DNA of 64,000 nucleotides, taken from positions 128,001 to 192,000 of the forward strand of contig CAVQJC010000002.1 of NCBI GenBank assembly GCA_963712745.1, written 5' to 3'. Made by a program: the position numbers and the translations under genes. Numbering within the stretch: position 1 is the first letter of the stretch; every line of letters starts with the position of its first letter. This DNA is from an uncultured Chloroflexia bacterium. Its GTDB lineage: Bacteria; Chloroflexota; Limnocylindria; Limnocylindrales; CSP1-4. Below the pieces are notes generated by a model. That model was given only the letters and a program-made list of their open reading frames with translations, was not told where the DNA came from and did no database searches. This document shows positions 11,091 to 21,283 of this stretch, in pieces.

Positions 11091-11997
11091 ATGCATAGCT
11101 CGGATCGCCGGGTCGCCTTCACGGGTGCCCTGGCACTGTCACTGGCGCTCGTTTCGCCGGTCATCGCGCAGGATGGCTCGGAGCCGGTGCCCTATCTCGA
11201 TGACCAGGGGAACCAGCTGGGAACCCTGCTCATCCGCGATTTCGCGGACCCCTTCACCGAGTTCGATCCCGCGTCGCCACCGGCAGAGGGTTCCCGCTAC
11301 GCCGTCCTCACCCTGACCTTCGAGGCCGCTGAGGACCAGGCCTTCCCGGCCGACCCGTACCAGGTGCAACTGCTCGACACGGACGGCTACGTCCACCTCT
11401 CGGGATGGGTCCCACGGCCGGCCGGTTCGGTCGTGCCTGATCTCCAGAGCCAGACACTCGCGCCGTTCGACCGCATCAGCGGTGTCATCCCCTACGTCCT
11501 GCCGGCGGAGGCGGAGATCGCCAGCGTCGTCTACCGCGGCGACGGCCGGCGCCTCATGCCCATCGTCGAGGTCGGAGACCGGGGCAGCGTCGCTGTCGGG
11601 GAGCCTCGCCTCATCGAGGACGCAGCCGGTACCGTCTACGGCGACGTCACGGTACGGGAGATCGATCGATCCGTTCACGGAGTTCGATCCCAACGGACCG
11701 CCCGCTGAGGGTATGCGCTACGTCCTCCTCGACACGGCCTTCACGGCGGCCGAGGACCAGGCCGTCGGGGCCAGCCCGGCCAATGTCGGGCTGGTCGGTG
11801 CCGACGGCATGATGTACTGGCCGAGCTGGGTCCCACGGCCGCAGCCGTTCCTGCTGCAGTACGTCGAGTCGCAGCCGCTGTCGCCGGGGGATCGCGTGTC
11901 AGGCGTCATCGGCTACGCCATCCCCCAGGACGTCGTCATCGACTCGGTCGTCTACAACCCTGAGGGCAACCGCTACCTCTCGCTCGTCGACCTCTAG
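11091..11997 (+). CDS. Secreted acidic protein with two homologous beta-rich domains (DUF4352-like); frameshift at ~11665
   Basis: Signal peptide ..VIAQD; internal repeat DPFTEFDP..PPAEG.RY...AAEDQA...WVPRP...L.P.DR.SGVI.Y in two frames. Confidence 0.7.
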
Positions 11998-12139
11998 GCC
12001 GGCGTCCGGGTGCTCGATGGCATCCGGGTGCTCGATGGCAGACAGCCCGCGGCCGTCGGCGGTCTCGGGCTGCTACCGCCCGGGCCATCGGGCTCGCGTC
12101 GAGACCGGATGCTGACGTGCGCGGCTGCTGACGTTCGCA

Positions 12140-12169
12140 TTGACACCGGGGCGCGCGGTCCGCTACTGT
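12140..12169 (+). promoter_or_regulatory. Sigma70-type promoter of the aro/trp operon leader
   Basis: TTGACA (12140-45), 18-nt spacer, TACTGT (12164-69). Confidence 0.7.
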
Positions 12170-12179
12170 CCGAGGCCTC

Positions 12180-12206
12180 ATGCACCAGTACTGGTACTTT
12201 AGCTAG
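12180..12206 (+). CDS. Leader peptide MHQYWYFS (candidate aromatic amino acid attenuator)
   Basis: ATG CAC CAG TAC TGG TAC TTT AGC TAG: four consecutive aromatic codons between promoter and terminator, upstream of DAHP synthase. Confidence 0.85.
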   Translation: MHQYWYFS

Positions 12207-12259
12207 CGGGTACGAGGCGGCCGGGTAGATCCCGGCGGCAGAGGCACTCGTGCCCGCTG

Positions 12260-12293
12260 ACGCAGGACCCCGACGGGCCTGCGTTTTTTGTTT
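12260..12293 (+). terminator. Intrinsic terminator (attenuator) upstream of the DAHP synthase gene
   Basis: ACGCAGG-a-CCC-cgac-GGG-CCTGCGT stem-loop followed by TTTTTGTTT. Confidence 0.88.
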
Positions 12294-12374
12294 GCCTCGC
12301 ACGACTCCGAGCACGAGCCAGACCACAGCTGCCGGCCAGGCAGGACACGAACCGAGGACGAGGGTGGTACCGAG

Positions 12375-13745
12375 ATGATCATCGTGATGCGCACCGAGGC
12401 GACGCAGGAGGAGATCGACGACGTCAAGCAGGTCGTCGCCGACGAGGGCCTTGAGACCTACGTGATGGTGGGCCAGGAACGCATCGTCATGGGCGTCGTG
12501 GGTGTGGGCGTGGAGCGGGTCCAACATGTCGAGCTGATGCCCGGCGTCGAGCAGTGCATCCGTGTCAGCAAACCCTACAAGCTGGCCTCCAGCGAACACC
12601 ACCCCGACAGATCGAGTGTTCGCGTGGGATCCGTGGAGATCGGTGCGGGCGCACCGCTGGCCGTCATGGCCGGGCCGTGCGCCGTGGAATCGCGCGAACA
12701 GTTGCTGGCCACTGCCCGCTGGGTGAAGCGCGAGGGGGCCACCTTGCTGCGCGGAGGTGCCTTCAAGCCGCGCTCCTCGCCGTACGCATTCCAGGGCCTC
12801 GGCGTGGAGGGCCTGCGGCTCCTCGCTGAGGCACGCGAGGAGACGGGGCTGCCGGTCGTCAGCGAGATCACCGACCCCGCCGACGTGCCCGTCTTCGAAG
12901 ACTACGTCGACATGCTCCAGGTCGGCGCCCGCAACATGGCCAACTTCGTCCTGCTCAAGGCCGTGGGCCAGTCACGCAAGCCGGTGCTCCTGAAACGCGG
13001 CCTCTCAGCCACCATCGACGAACTGCTGATGGCGGCCGAGTATGTCCTCTCCTCGGGCAATCCCAACGTCATCCTCTGCGAACGCGGTATCCGCACGTTC
13101 GAGACGGCCACCCGCAATACGCTGGACCTCTCGGCCGTGCCGGTCATCCAGGAGCGGACGCACCTGCCCGTCGTCGTCGACCCCTCGCATGGCACGGGGC
13201 ACCGCACTCTCGTCCGGCCGCTGGCCGTGGCCGGTGCCGCGGTTGGCGCCGATGGGATCATCATCGAGGTCCACCCTGACCCGCCCACGGCCCGCTCAGA
13301 CTCCGAGCAGTCGCTCTCCTTCCCCGAGTTCGGCGACCTCATGGACGACCTGCGCCGGCACGAGTTCTTGCGCCAGCCGACGGCCGCGCACGCCCACGTC
13401 CGCATCGAGCCGCCCACCGAGCGGAAGCACCTCCGTGCCCGCATCGACGATGTCGATGCGCGCCTCGTGGCGCTGCTCAAGGAGCGAGCAGAGCTCTCGG
13501 TGGCGGTCCAGCAGACGCGCGAGGCGGGCGACCACGGCCATGACGTGGGCCGCGAGCGTGAGCTCATCGAGAAGGCAGCGCACGGGTCGGAGGGTGTGCT
13601 CACGCCGGAGGAGCTCGAGATGGTCTACGGCGCCATCCTGCGCGTTTCGCGCTCCGCTCAGCGGCGAAGCGCTGCCGCTGCAGCAGCGGCCGATGGCGGA
13701 GCCGATCCGGACGGCGCGCTGGCCATTCCCAACGGCGGCAAGTGA
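12375..13745 (+). CDS. aroF: Class I-beta DAHP synthase with N-terminal ACT-like domain and C-terminal chorismate-mutase-like (AroQ) domain
   Basis: MIIVM.. regulatory domain; [45 protein letters not shown]; C-terminal [32 protein letters not shown]. Confidence 0.93.
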
Positions 13746-15085
13746 TGGACGTGGCGGCCGGCCGGCCCGGAGAAGGGACGGTCGTGGCGGCCCCGTCGCT
13801 GGTCGGCGGGCTGCGCCTGCCGGCGGACAAGTCGGTCGCCCACCGCGCGCTGCTCTTCAACGCCATGGGCTTCGGCGAGGCCACGGTGACGATGTCTCGT
13901 CCGGGCGGGGACGTGCTCTCGATGGCCGACGCCCTGCGCACGCTGGGCGCAGTCACGTCCCTCGATACGACCGAGGACGGAAGCGTGGCCGTGCTGGTGC
14001 GCGGCGGCGGCACGCAGAAGGCTGCCGTCCTGCCGGGTAGCGGCGGGGAGATGCTCGATTGTGGCAACGCCGGTACGGCCATGAGGCTGCTCGCGGGAGC
14101 TCTTGCTGGACGTCCTGCCGCGGCCACGCTCGTCGGCGACGAGTCGCTCTCGAGCCGGCCCATGGAGCGCGTGGCCGTGCCCTTGCGGCGTGTCGGCGCG
14201 GGGGTCGTGACCGAGGACGGGCACGCACCGCTCCGGATCGAGGGCAGGCGGCCCCTGGCCGCGGTGGCGCATGAGCTGAGGGTCGCCAGCGCGCAGGTCA
14301 TCGGCTGTCTCACGCTGGCCGCCCTGGCCGCCGACGGCACCACCATCATCACCGCCCCTGGACCGACTCGCGATCACAGCGAACGGATGCTCGCCTGGCT
14401 CGAGGCGCCGGTCCGCCGTGAGGGCTACGTCACCACCATCGATGGCCCGGCCGGCTTCCCCGCCCGTTCGATCGACGTGCCCGGCGACATCTCCGCGGCC
14501 GCCGCCTGGCTGGTCGCGGGTGCCATCCATCCTGATGCCCACATCGTCATCGAGGAAGTCGGGCTCAATCCTTCGCGGACCGGCATCATCGATGTACTCC
14601 GCGAGATGGGCGCGGACATCAAGGTCGCCTCGGGCGGGCCTACCGCACGCTGTCCCGAGCCCGTCGGCACCATCACCGTCAGCGGAGGCCGGATGCTGCG
14701 CGGCATCGACCTCGCCGGCGACCGCGTCGCCGACGTCATCGACGAGCTGCCGCTCATCGCCGTGGCCATGGCGGCCGCCGACGGCGTGAGCACGTTGCGC
14801 GATGCCGCCGAGTTGCGCGTGAAGGAATCCGACCGCATCGCCTTGACAGTGGAGAACCTGCGATCCATCGGCGCCGGGGCCGAAGAGCGGCCAGACGGCT
14901 GGGTCGTCTCCCGCGGAGCCCCCCGCGACGCGTCGATCCGGACCGATGGCGACCACCGCATCGCCATGTCGTTCGCGATCGCCGGCCTGGCCGGCGTTTC
15001 GGGTACCGTTGCCATCGACGATCCCGCCTGTGCGGCCGTCTCCTATCCCACCTTCTGGACAGACATGGAGCGTCTGACCCCATGA
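13745..15085 (+). CDS. aroA: EPSP synthase
   Basis: DKSVAHRA, DCGNAGTAMR, SAQV, RDHSE, KESDRI, DHRIAM. Confidence 0.95.
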   Translation: MDVAAGRPGEGTVVAAPSLVGGLRLPADKSVAHRALLFNAMGFGEATVTMSRPGGDVLSMADALRTLGAVTSLDTTEDGSVAVLVRGGGTQKAAVLPGSGGEMLDCGNAGTAMRLLAGALAGRPAAATLVGDESLSSRPMERVAVPLRRVGAGVVTEDGHAPLRIEGRRPLAAVAHELRVASAQVIGCLTLAALAADGTTIITAPGPTRDHSERMLAWLEAPVRREGYVTTIDGPAGFPARSIDVPGDISAAAAWLVAGAIHPDAHIVIEEVGLNPSRTGIIDVLREMGADIKVASGGPTARCPEPVGTITVSGGRMLRGIDLAGDRVADVIDELPLIAVAMAAADGVSTLRDAAELRVKESDRIALTVENLRSIGAGAEERPDGWVVSRGAPRDASIRTDGDHRIAMSFAIAGLAGVSGTVAIDDPACAAVSYPTFWTDMERLTP

Positions 15086-16362
15086 CCTTGCGACGCCTTC
15101 GGCTGCTCACCGCCGGCGAGTCCCACGGACCCGGCATGTCCGGGATCGTCGACGGCCTGCCCGCCGGCCTGCGCGTCTCGACGGCCAAGGTCGACGAGGA
15201 GCTGGCACGTCGCCAGCACGGCTACGGCAGCGGACGGCGCATGCAGATCGAGCGCGACCGCGTGCGCTGGACCGCCGGGCTGCGCTTCGGACGAACGCTG
15301 GGCTCTCCCCTCGCCTTCTCCATCCCCAACCGCGATTGGGCCAACTGGGAAGAGCGCATGTCGCTGGAGCCCACCGCCTCATCGCGGCGGCCCAAAGCCA
15401 TCACCCTGGCCCGGCCGGGTCATGCCGACCTGGCGGGTGCCATCAAGTACGACACCGGCGACATCCGTAACGTGCTCGAGCGCGCCTCGGCCCGATCGAC
15501 GGCACCGCGGGTGGCCGCGGGGGCGATCTGCCGTCAGCTGCTGGAGGACTGCGGGGTACGCATCTGGTCGTTCGTCGACCAGCTGGGCCCGGTGCGGGCA
15601 TTCGGCGGCGTCGACGAGCCGGCGACCCAGGTGCCGGTGGGGTGGATCGAACAGGATCGCCGGGAGCCCACGCCCCTTCGCTGTCCCGACCCCGAAGCGG
15701 AGCTGGCCATGATGGCCGAGGTTGACGCCGCCATCGCCGCCGGGGACTCGGTCGGCGGCTCGTTCATCGTGATCGCTGAGGGCATGCCCGTGGGCATCGG
15801 CTCCAACGCCGAGTGGGACACGCGCATCGACTCCGCGGTCGCCGCGGCACTCATGGGCATCCAGGCGGTCAAGGGTGTCGAGATCGGCCTGGGTTTCGGT
15901 GCGGTCGGGCGGCGAGGCAGCGCGGTCCATGACGAGGTCGACCCGGGCGCTCCGGCCTGGCAACGCAAGACGAACCGCGCCGGTGGCACGGAGGGCGGCA
16001 TGACCAATGGTGCCGCCGTCGTGGCCCGGGTCGCGGTCAAGCCGGTGGCGACGCTGCGCAAGCCGCTCGATTCGGTCGACCTTGCGACGGGCGAGGTCCG
16101 ACGCGCTCACATCGAACGGAGTGACGTGGCCATCATCCCGCGTGCCGCCGTGGTCGGCGAGGCCATGCTCGCGCTGGCCCTGGCCGACGCCCTGCTGGCC
16201 GACCTCGGCGGCGACACCCTGGGCGACGTGAAGGCAGCCGTGCGCCGCCGGCGGCGTCGATCGATCGGGCCGCGCGGCACGGAGACGTCCGCTCGCACCC
16301 TCGAGGCACTGCCCGAGGACGCCGCGGAGGAGGCCACCGTGGTGGAGGGCACAGACGCATGA
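15082..16362 (+). CDS. aroC: Chorismate synthase
   Basis: TAGESHG, RPGHAD, ERASAR, NRAGGTEGG, ERSD. Confidence 0.96.
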   Translation: MTLRRLRLLTAGESHGPGMSGIVDGLPAGLRVSTAKVDEELARRQHGYGSGRRMQIERDRVRWTAGLRFGRTLGSPLAFSIPNRDWANWEERMSLEPTASSRRPKAITLARPGHADLAGAIKYDTGDIRNVLERASARSTAPRVAAGAICRQLLEDCGVRIWSFVDQLGPVRAFGGVDEPATQVPVGWIEQDRREPTPLRCPDPEAELAMMAEVDAAIAAGDSVGGSFIVIAEGMPVGIGSNAEWDTRIDSAVAAALMGIQAVKGVEIGLGFGAVGRRGSAVHDEVDPGAPAWQRKTNRAGGTEGGMTNGAAVVARVAVKPVATLRKPLDSVDLATGEVRRAHIERSDVAIIPRAAVVGEAMLALALADALLADLGGDTLGDVKAAVRRRRRRSIGPRGTETSARTLEALPEDAAEEATVVEGTDA

Positions 16363-17144
16363 ACGAACACCCGCGCGACTTCAAGTTGCTGGGCCACGGC
16401 ATCGCCTACTCGGCCTCACCCGCGATGATGAATGCCGCCTTCGCCTCGCTCGGGCTCCCGCATCGGTATGCGCTTGCGGACATCCCGGAGGAAGACGTGC
16501 CCGCGGTCGTCGACTCGTTGCGATCGACCGATGCCGGCGGAGCGAACGTGACCGTGCCGCACAAGGGCGTCGTCGTTCCCCTCCTCGACGACGTCTCGGA
16601 CGACGCGCGGGAGGCTGACGCTGTCAACACCATCGTCTGTCGCAACGGCCGACTGATCGGCCACAACACCGACATGCCGGCCATGATCGACGTCATCAGC
16701 GACCTGCGGCCACACGGTTCGGAGCATGCCATCATCCTCGGTGCCGGCGGTGCCGGCCGAGCGGTGCAGCTGGCCCTCAGCAAGTTGGGGGTGGACCGGG
16801 TCAGCGTGCTACATCGCTCGGACGCCTCGATCGAACGACTCCCACGCCTCATCGGCACTGCTGATCTGCTCGTCAACGCCACGCCCGTCGGCACCGGCAG
16901 CGATCAGAGCCCCGTGCCGGCCGAGCTCCTGCGGGATGACCTGGCTGTGCTCGACCTCGTCTACCGTCCTGATCCCACACGCCTCGTGAGGGACGCCCGG
17001 AAGGCAGGCGCGGTCGCGGAGGCCGGGTCAGCCCTGCTGCTCGGCCAGGCCTGGCGCGCCTTCGAGCTCTGGCTGGAGCGACCCGCACCAATCGAAGTGA
17101 TGCGCGCCGCGCTGGCGCGCGAACTGGAGAAGCACGATGACTGA
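16359..17144 (+). CDS. aroE: Shikimate dehydrogenase
   Basis: SASP, NVTVPHK, AVNT, NTD, GAGGAG, NATPVG, DLVY. Confidence 0.94.
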   Translation: MNEHPRDFKLLGHGIAYSASPAMMNAAFASLGLPHRYALADIPEEDVPAVVDSLRSTDAGGANVTVPHKGVVVPLLDDVSDDAREADAVNTIVCRNGRLIGHNTDMPAMIDVISDLRPHGSEHAIILGAGGAGRAVQLALSKLGVDRVSVLHRSDASIERLPRLIGTADLLVNATPVGTGSDQSPVPAELLRDDLAVLDLVYRPDPTRLVRDARKAGAVAEAGSALLLGQAWRAFELWLERPAPIEVMRAALARELEKHDD

Positions 17145-18756
17145 CACGATCGTCCTGGTCGGCCTGTCCGGCAGCGGCAAGTCCACCATCGCTGAGCCGC
17201 TCGCGGAGCGACTGCGCCGGCCGCTCATCGACGTGGACGCCGCCATCGAGGAACGGGTCGGGATGGATCCGTCCACCATCATCCATGAGCGTGGCGAAGC
17301 CGCCTTCCGTGAGCTGGAGGTCGAAGCAGTGGCGCGCGCCTGCGAGGTGGACGGCGCGGTCGTCGCGACGGGCGGCGGGGCCATCATCGACCCACTGAAC
17401 CGCTGGGCGCTGTGGCATGCGGGGGCGGTCGTCTGGCTCGACGCTCCGGATGACGTGCTGCTTGGCCGCCTGGCCCGCCACTACAAGCCTCGCCCGATGC
17501 TCGAGGGCAACGCGGCTGATCGCTTGGCCGCGCTTCGGGGCTCGCGCTCTCCGTTCTACCGTGCGGCCGACATCCATGTCGATGCCACGGCGCCGGTCGA
17601 GGAGGTCATCGAGACCGTCATCTCGAGAGTGGAACAAGGGGTGGGGCAGTCGCGCCGGCTCTACGACTCCGAGGTCAAGCAGGACCACCCGATGATCCCC
17701 GCCACCTCGCGCATCGTCTTCGGAGAGCATCTGGACGAAGCCGTCTTCGGCGACGTACTGGGTCCGGTCAGCACCGGTTCCCCCGTGGTGGTCGCCGACA
17801 GAGGAGCCGCCAGGGCGCTGCCCGAGCTCCTGGGGGCCCTGCCGCAGGCTCGCCTGCTGCGTATCGCCGGTGGTGAGCGCTACAAGCGACTGCGCAATGT
17901 GGAACGCCTGCTCGAGTCAGCCAGCACGCTGGGCGCCGAGCGAGGGGATGCCTGGATCGGCGTGGGCGGCGGGACCGCCACCGACCTGGTCGGAACCGCT
18001 GCCGCCCTGTACCTGCGGGGGGTGCCATTCATGGCCGTCCCGACAACGTGGCTGGGCATGACCGATGCGGCCATCGGCGGGAAGGTCGCAGTGGACCTGC
18101 CGAACGCCAAGAACGCAGCCGGTGCCTTCTGGCCGCCCTCGGCAGTGGTCGGCGATATCGCGAGCCTGGGGCCCTTGCCCCGTGCGCGACGGCTGGACGG
18201 CATGGCCGAGTCGCTCAAGAGCGGACTCATCGGTGACCGGGTCCTGTGGCACCTCATCGAGACGCGGGGACGAGCAGCGTTGCGGAATGACCAGGCTGCC
18301 CGCTACGCCATCATCGATCGCTCCGTGCAGCTCAAGCTGGGCATCGTCAGCCGCGACCTGTTCGAGCGCGGTGAGCGCCGCACGCTCAACCTCGGGCACA
18401 CCATCGGCCACGCCCTCGAAATCGAGAGCGGGTTCCGGCTGCCTCACGGGCAGGCCGTGGTGCTCGGCATCCGTGCCGTCGCCGCCGTCGCCCGGCGCTG
18501 GGGTGCGGAACCCGACCTGGCCGATCAGATCGACAGCGTCGCCTCAGACCTGGGTTTCGAGCTGCGGCGAGCCTTCGATACCGACGTGGTCAAGCGCGCA
18601 CTCCAGAGCGACAAGAAACGACACCTCGGACGCCAGCGCTGGATCATGCCCATGGCCGTGGGCACGGTGATGGAGGTCGACGACGTCACGGATGCCGAGC
18701 TCGATCTTGCCCTCGCGACGATCGCAGCGGACGGCCAGAAAGGGGTTTCAGCATGA
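17137..18756 (+). CDS. aroKB: Bifunctional shikimate kinase / 3-dehydroquinate synthase
   Basis: N-terminal GLSGSGKST, GEAAFRELE, ATGGG; C-terminal GGGTATDL, PTTWLGMTDAAIGGK, LNLGHTIGHA, LPHGQAV, DKK. Confidence 0.93.
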   Translation: MTDTIVLVGLSGSGKSTIAEPLAERLRRPLIDVDAAIEERVGMDPSTIIHERGEAAFRELEVEAVARACEVDGAVVATGGGAIIDPLNRWALWHAGAVVWLDAPDDVLLGRLARHYKPRPMLEGNAADRLAALRGSRSPFYRAADIHVDATAPVEEVIETVISRVEQGVGQSRRLYDSEVKQDHPMIPATSRIVFGEHLDEAVFGDVLGPVSTGSPVVVADRGAARALPELLGALPQARLLRIAGGERYKRLRNVERLLESASTLGAERGDAWIGVGGGTATDLVGTAAALYLRGVPFMAVPTTWLGMTDAAIGGKVAVDLPNAKNAAGAFWPPSAVVGDIASLGPLPRARRLDGMAESLKSGLIGDRVLWHLIETRGRAALRNDQAARYAIIDRSVQLKLGIVSRDLFERGERRTLNLGHTIGHALEIESGFRLPHGQAVVLGIRAVAAVARRWGAEPDLADQIDSVASDLGFELRRAFDTDVVKRALQSDKKRHLGRQRWIMPMAVGTVMEVDDVTDAELDLALATIAADGQKGVSA

Positions 18757-19191
18757 GGATCCTGCTACTCAACGGGCCCAACCTGGGCCGTCTCGGCAAG
18801 CGCCAGCCTGGAGATCTACGGCTCCACCACGCTGGCGGAGGTGGAAGCCGCGGCCGCCGAACACGCGGTCAGCCTGGGCCACTCCCTCGTGGCCTACCAG
18901 TCAAATCACGATGGTGCGCTCATCGATCGCATCGAAGAGCGCGACTACGACGCCATCGTCATCAACCCCGGTGCCCTGACCCACTACGCATGGTCGTTGC
19001 ACGACGCGTTGGTCGGCGCTGAGTGCCCGGTCGTGGAGATCCACATCAGCGACATCTACGCCCGCGAAGCCTGGCGCCATTTCTCGGTCGTCGAACCGGT
19101 CGCCAGCCACCGCATCATGGGACATGGCTGGCGCGGGTATCTCGAAGCCATCGACTTCCTTCACGCCGAGGCCGCCGAACGGTCTCGCTGA
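18753..19191 (+). CDS. aroQ: Type II 3-dehydroquinate dehydratase; frameshift at ~18810
   Basis: LLNGPNLGRLGKRQP, then in the shifted frame EIYG..., YQSNHDG, INPGALTH, EIHISD..RE.WRH.S. Confidence 0.92.
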
Positions 19192-19214: not shown

Positions 19215-20663
19215 ATGACCGCCCAGCTCCCGCGACCCGGCCTGGCCGGCGTGGCCGCCGTCGAGATCAGCGCCGACACCATCTCGCCGGTGACGGCCGC
19301 GCTCCGTCTGCACGACCAGGACCGGCTCGCCTTCATCCTCGAGTCGGTGGAGGGCGGTGCCCGCTACGGACGCTACTCCATGGTCGGCGTGCGCGGCCGC
19401 ATCCTCGCCGTCGAGGGTGACGAGGCCATCGTGCGCAGCCACGACTACGCCGAGCTCGATCGGTTCCCTGCGAGCGATCCGCTCGAGGCCCTGCGTCGGA
19501 TGCTGCCGGACGCGCCGCCCCAAGGCGAGCTTCCGGTCTCGCTCGCTTCGGGTGTCGGCTATCTCTCGTACGAGGCGGCGGCTCGCTGGGAGAAGCTGCC
19601 GGTGCCGGAGGCCGATCCCATCGGCCTGCCGCTGGCGCTCTTCCACCTGCCCGACGTGCTCGTCGTCTTCGACCACCTCGCGCAGACCGCCACGCTCGCG
19701 ACCATCGACGGGCCTGGAGCCCTCGACCGCCTGGCTGATGCACGAACGATGCTGGCCCGACCGTCGAGGATCGAGGGCGCTGTGCCCATCCCGACCGAGG
19801 CCGCGCGGCACACCCCACCGGCGGCCGATGGCCGCTACGAAGCCGGCGTCGCCAGCCTCGTGCACGACATCCGCGCGGGCGAGATGCTGCAGGCGGTGCT
19901 GGCACGGCGCTTCAGCCTGCCCTGCTCGGTGGGGCCCCTCGAGATCTACCGCTCGCTGCGACGCATCAATCCATCGCCGCACCTCTTCGCCATCGACCTT
20001 GGGCCACGGCGCTCGGTGCTGGGTGCCTCACCGGAGCTGCTCGTGCGCGTCCGCGACGGAGTGGTGTCCACGCGACCCATCGCCGGCACACGGCCCCGCT
20101 CGGTCGACCCGGTCGCCGATGCGGCGCTGGAGGCGGACCTGCTGGCTGACCAGAAGGAGCTGGCCGAACACGCGATGCTCGTGGACCTCGCGCGCAACGA
20201 CGTGGGGCGGGTGGCCGTGCCTGGGAGCGTACGTGTACCGGCGCTCCATTCAATCGAACGCTACTCGCACGTCATGCACATCGTGTCGGAAGTGGAGGGC
20301 GAGCTGCGCGGCGACCGCGATGCCTTCGACGCTGTGCGCTCGGTGTTCCCAGCGGGCACGCTCAGCGGCGCGCCCAAGGTGCGTGCCATGCAGGCCATCG
20401 CAGAGCTGGAGAACGAGCAACGCGGCCCCTACGGTGGCGCCGTGGGCTTCTTTGCCCCCGACGATGTGGAGGCCGCCATCACCATCCGGGCGATGGTGCT
20501 CAAGGACGGTACCGCCTATGTCCAGGCCGGGGCCGGCATCGTGGCCGACTCGGTGCCGGAACGCGAGTCCGCGGAAGTGGCGGCCAAGGCCGGGGCCATC
20601 CTGAGTGCCCTCGCCGAGGCCGAAGCCATCTACGGGATCAACGGATCGGAGAGCGTGCGATGA
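19215..20663 (+). CDS. trpE: Anthranilate synthase component I
   Basis: ILES..GRYS, ASPE, PIAGT (anthranilate synthase type), EHAMLVDLARND, FPAGTLSGAPK, RGPYGGAVG, QAGAGIV. Confidence 0.88.
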   Translation: MTAQLPRPGLAGVAAVEISADTISPVTAALRLHDQDRLAFILESVEGGARYGRYSMVGVRGRILAVEGDEAIVRSHDYAELDRFPASDPLEALRRMLPDAPPQGELPVSLASGVGYLSYEAAARWEKLPVPEADPIGLPLALFHLPDVLVVFDHLAQTATLATIDGPGALDRLADARTMLARPSRIEGAVPIPTEAARHTPPAADGRYEAGVASLVHDIRAGEMLQAVLARRFSLPCSVGPLEIYRSLRRINPSPHLFAIDLGPRRSVLGASPELLVRVRDGVVSTRPIAGTRPRSVDPVADAALEADLLADQKELAEHAMLVDLARNDVGRVAVPGSVRVPALHSIERYSHVMHIVSEVEGELRGDRDAFDAVRSVFPAGTLSGAPKVRAMQAIAELENEQRGPYGGAVGFFAPDDVEAAITIRAMVLKDGTAYVQAGAGIVADSVPERESAEVAAKAGAILSALAEAEAIYGINGSESVR

Positions 20664-21283
20664 CCACCGCCACGACAGACCTGCCGGGCGCCGGCCGACG
20701 GATCCTGCTGCTCGACAACTACGACAGCTTCACCTACAACCTGTACCAGTATCTGTGTCAGCTGGGCGCGGACGTGGAAGTGGCACGCAACGACGAGATC
20801 TCGGTCGCGGAGATCGCGGCCAAGGTTCCGGATGGCATCGTCATCAGCCCGGGCCCCTCGCGGCCGGAGAACGCCGGCATCTCGCTCGACGTCATCCGCC
20901 ACTTCGGGCCGACCACGCCGGTACTCGGGGTCTGCCTGGGCCACCAGTCGATCGGGCTGGTCTACGGCGGCGAAGTGGTCACCGTGGAGCCGGTGCACGG
21001 CAAGAAGTCGGCCGTCGACCATCGCGGGCAGGGGATCTTCGAGGGGTTGCCCACGCCGCTCGAGGCCGGACGCTACCACTCGCTGGCAGTGGCTCGCAAT
21101 TCTGTGCCGGAAGTCCTGGAGGTGACCGCTACCAGTCCCGACGGGCTGGTGATGGGGCTGCGGCATCGCGAGCACCCGGTCGAGGGCATCCAATTCCACC
21201 CCGAGTCGATCCTCACCGAGTTCGGCATGACCATGCTTGGCAACTGGCTGCGCTCGCTGCCGGCGGCGCACGCGCATCGCTGA
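20660..21283 (+). CDS. trpG: Anthranilate synthase component II (glutamine amidotransferase)
   Basis: DNYDSFTYN, SPGP, GVCLGHQ, RYHSL, QFHPES. Confidence 0.92.
   Translation: MTTATTDLPGAGRRILLLDNYDSFTYNLYQYLCQLGADVEVARNDEISVAEIAAKVPDGIVISPGPSRPENAGISLDVIRHFGPTTPVLGVCLGHQSIGLVYGGEVVTVEPVHGKKSAVDHRGQGIFEGLPTPLEAGRYHSLAVARNSVPEVLEVTATSPDGLVMGLRHREHPVEGIQFHPESILTEFGMTMLGNWLRSLPAAHAHR

Follow-up and report, generated by a model that had tools for sequence, protein, structure and literature searches.

The window, a 64,000-nt stretch of DNA from an uncultured Chloroflexota bacterium, carries in front of its shikimate operon, which includes trpEG, what is very probably a leader-peptide attenuator sensing aromatic aminoacyl-tRNAs, as read from the sequence and its homologues. 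The first-pass annotation had proposed such an attenuator for the whole shikimate-trpEG operon. The leader ORF of that proposal is borne out, as it is conserved with an invariant Trp codon (W in 36/36 leaders of type A, defined below) and with W, F and Y together in 34/36, but the overlapping antiterminator of a classical attenuator is absent. The window leader thus appears to match classical attenuators in input and output, fails the antiterminator test and would fit a steric design. In that design, which our analysis makes somewhat probable, a hairpin directly upstream of the terminator (P1) would act as a non-overlapping steric antiterminator.

The leader, its operon and its homologues

All features described here lie on the forward strand and are given in window coordinates. 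The promoter consists of a -35 element, TTGACA (12140–12145), kept in 29/29 genus leaders, and a -10 element of the TAnnnT form, TACTGT (12164–12169), with a spacing of 18 nt. The -10 element lies 10 nt upstream of the leader ATG at 12180, and this distance is 8–12 nt across the 36 type A leaders. The transcript would therefore seem to be near-leaderless, with few 5' nucleotides before the ATG. The leader ORF (12180–12206, stop TAG at 12204–12206), recognized from the sequence and its homologues, encodes MHQYWYFS. Its regulatory codons, TAC TGG TAC TTT (Tyr-Trp-Tyr-Phe; 12189–12200), include a single Trp codon, and the last of them ends 5 nt before P1. Among homologues, residues 2 and 3 are variable and the aromatic positions are conserved.

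Our consensus promoter and terminator scan missed both signals, as its -10 rule demands four of six matches and the terminator stem is bulged. Nevertheless, the elements that the first-pass annotation had picked out by eye are all present in the sequence: the TTGACA-18-TACTGT promoter, the near-leaderless eight-codon ORF with four consecutive aromatic codons, and a long hairpin running from the stop codon and abutting a U-tailed terminator. The terminator had been placed about 80 nt upstream of the DAHP synthase gene, which agrees with a U tract from 12284 and an aroF ATG at 12375.

The first gene, aroF (12375–13745), encodes a DAHP synthase of the PRK08673 family with a C-terminal chorismate-mutase-like domain, which CM models match below their cut-offs. 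It is followed by aroA, aroC, aroE, an aroKB fusion and aroQ (13742–19191), and then by trpE and trpG for anthranilate synthase (19215–21283), whose best NCBIfam matches fall below the cut-offs of the anthranilate-synthase-specific models. The operon order is aroF-aroA-aroC-aroE-aroKB-aroQ-trpEG. A frameshift near 18810 splits aroQ (18753–19191), with the N-terminus read from 18753 and the remainder in another frame; it is probably an assembly indel, the genome having others.

Some neighboring and related loci were also noted. At 11091–11997, two overlapping ORFs in different frames, neither matched by Pfam at 1e-8, look like a single secreted protein that contains two repeated domains and has been broken by a frameshift. 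A direct repeat of about 19 nt (11998–12040) lies just past the stop of the upstream gene, outside the conserved leader. Elsewhere on the contig, trpD and a trpC-F-B fusion are found without trpEG; the trpC-trpF-trpB triple fusion (941 aa) sits behind trpD (L100:4649-7471, G000:C2). The prephenate dehydratase gene pheA ends a branched-chain operon, ilvC-leuA-leuB-cimA, apart from the aromatic genes (L102:5609-12077, G000:C20). A TrpR-family (HisR-like) gene, apparently frameshifted, lies directly before hisG-hisD-hisC-hisB-hisH (L222:3747-4956, G000:C10). The assembly also holds a second full leader and aro-trpEG operon (L096; G000:C1:484883-494011), with about 80% protein identity, many frameshifts and the leader peptide MTSYWYFS, and trpD-trpB is likewise duplicated on the C1 contig. 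This second operon copy possibly stems from a co-binned relative (contamination 5%).

The best 30 same-genus aroF loci were taken for comparison, and 29 of them had upstream DNA. All 29 keep the -35 and -10 elements, the start codon, W, TAG, P1 and the terminator, so that a short ORF with W/Y/F codons is conserved upstream of aroF orthologs throughout the genus set (29/29). Type A (36 leaders) includes the window leader, these 29 loci and six from another genus and another family. In 23 of the 24 remaining Limnocylindria loci, the other aroF clade is preceded by a type B leader, in which a Phe/Tyr run is followed mostly by x-x-P-A-stop. The same layout was found upstream of DAHP synthase in 8/25 loci of other Chloroflexota classes; the other 17 were screened over 600 nt only, for three close aromatic codons, so that absence is not implied. 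As the homologues are related, all conservation counts are non-independent. Left out of the counts were L017, whose upstream DNA is cut by the contig end, L091, with an intact type A RNA and a frame-broken ORF in an assembly with other frameshifts, and L090 and L108–L111, with no leader directly before aroF (L111 has trpA upstream).

Within the genome itself, 52 promoter and short-ORF candidates were obtained. A downstream U tract was present in only two, and both were this leader (the window and the second copy), which places the element beyond chance. A strict scan of the genome (4.2 Mb) yielded nine strong U-tailed terminators, two of which belong to these leaders. No other leader attenuators of the same design were found in the same genome by these scans. 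A class-wide IUPAC pattern allowing one mismatch gave no more matches than its reversed control.

The last aromatic position is F or Y in 36/36 type A leaders, and TTT makes up 33/51 Phe codons in type A leaders vs 1/47 in seven operon genes. A strict link between the Trp codon and trpEG was considered and rejected: trpEG follows aroQ in 3/6 type A and 0/4 type B operons, and W is present in 36/36 type A vs 4/23 type B leaders.

Hairpin P1 and the terminator

P1 spans 52 nt (12206–12257; ~-39 kcal/mol) and is supported by folding and covariation. Its core arms (12206–12216 and 12247–12257) enclose an inner stem (12220–12225 and 12231–12236; GCCGGG/CCCGGC) and a 7-nt bulge (12240–12246), and the core can be extended by two pairs into the leader stop codon. 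A spacer of 3 nt (12258–12260; 1 nt in the MFE fold) separates the P1 core from that of the predicted intrinsic terminator (12261–12293; ~-15 kcal/mol). The terminator has a stem of 12261–12266 and 12278–12283, an inner 3-bp stem, and a U tract (12284–12289) followed by GTTT. The fold of 12176–12295 reached -60.6 kcal/mol (z -3.85), and none of 200 shuffles was as good.

In an alignment of 17 sequences, whose rows are related, 97.8% of the cells of P1 and the terminator were paired, and four pairs had two-sided changes. For the same 17 related sequences, the pairing score was matched by 0/500 shuffles and by no slid control. Furthermore, outer P1 pairs that are G-C in type A are swapped to C-G in type B. 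The sequence of the P1 3'-arm core is conserved over 65 leaders, and its variation consists mostly of G-U wobbles.

The distance between P1 and the terminator is nearly fixed. It is 0–4 nt in all 36 type A and in 20/23 type B leaders (5 nt in the other three), and 2–6 nt in the eight distant Chloroflexota leaders, with 5–6 nt in five of them. The distance from terminator to gene, in contrast, varies from 22 to 135 nt. Terminator strength is -15.0 kcal/mol in the window, with medians of -15.8 in type A and -13.0 in type B; in the tug-of-war architecture discussed below, strengths would mostly lie below -15 kcal/mol, in balance with spacer length. Longer spacers accompany weaker terminators (rho 0.32, from related and thus not independent sequences).

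No Rfam family matched at its gathering score. The best sub-threshold match, Atu_C8 (30.6 of 50 bits), was taken as a generic hairpin-plus-terminator shape, and no known ligand-binding aptamer was matched in the leader by the same search. A -1 frameshift signal has a similar spacer-plus-hairpin geometry, but inspection by eye revealed no conserved slippery heptamer, and this candidate was rejected. Metatranscriptome contigs from 4/7 runs include one (X1) that spans 12200–12448 across the terminator with one difference and another (X4) that holds the leader of a relative; 11967–12167 was uncovered. Because these contigs reveal neither strand nor ends nor levels, and could include DNA, they speak neither for nor against regulation.

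Search for an overlapping antiterminator and the proposed switch

Textbook leader-peptide attenuation requires pairings that are mutually exclusive with the terminator. We therefore calculated, for each ribosome position, the cost (kcal/mol) of freeing the terminator 5' arm from upstream RNA before the 3' arm is made, and applied the same procedure to E. coli trpL, pheL and thrL (NC_000913.3) as controls. L128 was left out of the spacer and overlap parsing, L193, L210, L207 and L221 were left out of the overlap analysis, and L180 was omitted from it as a near-copy of L178.

On most regulatory codons, the controls gave 6.5–9.3 kcal/mol for trpL, with values reaching 15 for pheL and 13.7 for thrL; they dropped to 0–3 kcal/mol when the ribosome was at the stop or absent. 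Medians in the type A (36) and type B (22) leaders were only 0–2.6 kcal/mol at the aromatic codons, no more than elsewhere, and the eight distant Chloroflexota leaders gave mostly 0–3.6 kcal/mol at the aromatic run, one reaching 5.5. Compared with the E. coli controls, no overlapping antiterminator favored at the regulatory codons was found in type A or type B leaders. As their medians lie far below the control values of 6.5–15 kcal/mol, the defining overlapping antiterminator is missing, and the classical switch that the first-pass annotation could not make out by eye is absent by this measure. An equilibrium fold with ribosome occlusion was not discriminating, as the terminator probability was 1.00 in every row listed. 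The folding method is blind to pseudoknots, triplexes and proteins.

The overlap test is able to detect antiterminators in other aroF leaders. Of 71 additional DAHP synthase loci taken from named genomes, 11 had F/W/Y-rich leaders (L155, L158, L161, L166, L171, L174, L178, L180, L182, L193 and L210), located about 200–240 nt upstream of DAHP synthase. They come from Syntrophales, other delta-proteobacteria, Nitrospirota and one unclassified bacterium, and some carry a second hairpin and U tract near the gene. In 8/8 of the delta-proteobacterial and Nitrospirota leaders analyzed, the helix 6–9 nt after the last aromatic codon is an overlapping antiterminator, with typical values of 7–16 kcal/mol on the aromatic codons that fall to 2–4 by the stop. 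The position of P1 is thus that of an antiterminator, but P1 ends just short of the terminator. Two other leaders upstream of DAHP synthase were noted, one in Anaerolineae with six consecutive Tyr codons (L207) and one in Pseudomonadota with three Trp codons (L221), each followed by a terminator-like hairpin.

The placement of P1 relative to the aromatic codons is fixed as well. Between the end of the last aromatic codon and the P1 core lie 5 nt in 36/36 type A and 22/23 type B leaders (58/59), whereas the stop codon shifts relative to P1, from -2 in type A to +7 to +24 in type B. When the last aromatic codon occupies the A site, the first P-site nucleotide is 11 nt upstream of the P1 base. 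The available text of one preprint puts the mRNA entry channel 11–12 nt from the P-site codon and reports that stem-loops there can slow A-site tRNA binding (bioRxiv 10.1101/2020.02.05.936120). In our folds by ribosome position, P1 stayed intact with a stall on any aromatic codon and was opened at the stop. Since P1 is folded during an aromatic stall and the operon is biosynthetic, folded P1 must be the ON state.

We favor, with somewhat better than even confidence, P1 as a non-overlapping steric antiterminator resembling those of "tug-of-war" riboswitches, which a stalled ribosome would spare and a translating one would melt. A ribosome would load on the almost leaderless ORF and, when charged tRNA-Tyr, -Trp or -Phe is scarce, stall at codons 4–7. 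Stalled at any aromatic codon, it would leave P1 folded and brace it at the entry channel. Folded P1, ending 1–3 nt before the terminator stem, would then compete for the exit channel of RNA polymerase, so that the terminator stays open and the operon is transcribed. When all three amino acids are plentiful, the ribosome would reach the stop and unwind the base of P1, the freed 3' arm could refold locally, and the terminator would form. Shortage of any single aromatic amino acid would thus induce the operon (OR logic).

The accessible part of a 2026 preprint describes structures directly upstream of an intrinsic terminator that suppress termination without sequence overlap (bioRxiv 10.64898/2026.06.17.733018). 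It also states that longer spacers restore termination and that spacers of natural ZTP riboswitches are almost always <5 nt. The window leader has this layout, in that its stable structure lies immediately 5' of the terminator, across a short spacer, and the two have no sequence in common, although the spacers of 5–6 nt in five of the eight distant leaders exceed the usual range in that preprint. In the same portion of text, more stable terminators were hardly affected, if at all, by a simple hairpin (hisT) placed upstream, which suggests that P1 alone may be too weak. In addition, once the ribosome has left the stop codon, P1 (-39 kcal/mol) might re-form while polymerase is still covering the roughly 80 nt to the U tract. 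For both reasons, the model needs the stalled ribosome to brace P1, or the ribosome to leave the stop codon slowly, or the freed arm to be trapped, for which the small local hairpin visible in the ribosome-position folds is a candidate.

Of the alternatives, the one that survives best is a classical attenuator whose weak or non-nested antiterminator was missed by folding. P1 would act as a protector that a stalled ribosome frays at the base, and either the 3' arm thus freed or, by way of a pseudoknot or triplex, the bulge would pair with a terminator arm. In type A, sequestration does reach 2.3–2.7 kcal/mol when the last aromatic codon occupies the A site and 12 nt are covered, and in the alignment the bulge of type A is similar to the 5' arm of the terminator. 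However, sequestration is about 0 at the invariant W and near 1–3 at most positions, which does not exceed the level without a ribosome and lies far below the controls. The type B bulge differs, and distant leaders keep the layout with wholly different terminator sequences, so we regard this explanation as unlikely.

P1 could instead be a put-like or protein-bound element, which when folded modifies RNA polymerase or binds a Nus-type factor and is destroyed by a translating ribosome. The identity of the P1 3'-arm core over the 65 leaders, which exceeds what pairing needs, would fit, but recent common descent and overlap of the 5' arm with coding sequence can also explain it. Moreover, put-like elements are not known to need adjacency to a terminator, yet the spacer here is 0–6 nt. 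Put-type action is mentioned in the introduction of the 2026 preprint (bioRxiv 10.64898/2026.06.17.733018, available text). We consider this reading quite unlikely.

It is improbable that aromatic tRNAs are sensed through coupling, pausing or Rho, with P1 as a pause hairpin or one that slows the ribosome. The genome encodes a rho gene product, its U-tailed terminators are rare, and the entry-channel position of P1, at which stem-loops can slow A-site tRNA binding, would suit a slowing hairpin. Against this, the U-tailed terminator is kept in every homologue, and the ORF ends about 55 nt before the terminator, beyond ribosome cover.

Very improbable is an inverse logic, in which ribosome-free aromatic codons lengthen P1 and base-pair with the 5' arm of the terminator. 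The leader would then be less a sensor of a specific amino acid than of a general failure of translation. Sequestration is indeed highest without a ribosome (medians of 2.3 in type A and 5.0 in type B), and the U-rich codon bias could be accounted for in the same way. However, this pairing is weak and differs among leaders, and it leaves unexplained the invariant Trp codon and the F/Y exchange at fixed positions before aromatic-pathway genes.

A DNA-binding repressor at the palindrome 12184–12195, which the first-pass annotation had raised and which would make the ORF incidental, is largely refuted and almost certainly wrong: the perfect 12-bp palindrome does lie just downstream of the promoter (chance would give 0.08 such 12-mers in a stretch of this length) and one TrpR-family gene is present in the genome, but the palindrome is perfect in 1/36 homologues (the window itself) with one genome copy, and that gene stands at the head of the his operon, where a HisR-type regulator would be expected (PMC9413887, available text). 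Neither a T-box RNA in the leader nor a TRAP gene in the genome (85% complete) was found.

Meaning and comparison with known systems

Beyond the window, we see an even chance that these leaders form a Chloroflexota-wide attenuator class whose non-overlapping steric antiterminator is governed by the position of the ribosome. When stalled, the ribosome would take the place of the riboswitch ligand, no alternative pairing with the terminator would be involved, and three tRNA pools would be read in eight codons. If so, ribosome-sensed attenuation would have a second, modular design missed by antiterminator-based searches, and the tug-of-war principle of 2026 would extend from riboswitches to translation-coupled control. 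Without the unusual switch, the leaders would still be a sound, if ordinary, new family of attenuators from a lineage that is uncultured. With a length of about 115 nt, dozens of natural variants and an overlapping-antiterminator counterpart in other phyla, the element is directly testable.

A literature search, in which most subscription papers were outside reach, found no aromatic leader from Chloroflexota or Limnocylindria and no leader peptide acting without an antiterminator. The attenuator survey of Lopatovskaya et al. (2010, Lyubetsky group) reportedly includes Chloroflexi predictions, and may already predict the present family. The original study of the C. glutamicum aroR/aroF attenuator is said to be that of Neshat et al. 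in 2014.

The aroR leader (Phe-Tyr-Phe) precedes aroF in C. glutamicum and, in the accessible text of the reports, was studied experimentally and responds to Phe and not to Tyr (PMC11802643, PMC4046766). Like the window leader, it is a short mixed-aromatic leader upstream of a DAHP synthase operon, and it is described there as induced by ribosome stalling. Unlike the window leader, it has no Trp codon, responds to Phe only and belongs to a different phylum. The window leader would moreover control the whole shikimate pathway and trpEG.

The Acholeplasma leader uORFC-13-1, as far as its description is available (PMC8632094), is likewise a predicted uORF between a promoter and an intrinsic terminator before aroF, with a second helix, and its motif lies directly upstream of the terminator as in the window leader. 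Compared by description, it differs in having Phe only and an RBS, in being confined to Acholeplasma and in being a prediction only. From aroR and uORFC-13-1, attenuation at DAHP synthase with mixed aromatic codons was already known. Because aroR and the F/W/Y-rich leaders of Syntrophales, delta-proteobacteria and Nitrospirota share it, mixed aromatic codon sensing at aroF is not unique to this leader.

These last leaders also place all three aromatic codons before DAHP synthase, with the helix 6–9 nt after the last of them. They have 23–32 codons and a helix that overlaps the terminator 5' arm, whereas the window leader has eight codons and no overlap. E. coli trpL, pheL and thrL share with the window leader an ORF with cognate codons, an intrinsic terminator and a biosynthetic operon. 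They own a strong overlapping antiterminator gated by ribosome position, which the window leader lacks; the latter is near-leaderless, with its regulatory codons upstream of the helix.

In architecture, the window leader is like the "tug-of-war" riboswitches, in which a structure abuts an intrinsic terminator with no overlap and a spacer of a few nucleotides (bioRxiv 10.64898/2026.06.17.733018). The available text of that preprint contains no leader-peptide or uORF case. The riboswitch input, as described there, is a ligand-stabilized aptamer (natural ZTP, mostly in Bacilli), whereas here the input would be the position of the ribosome.
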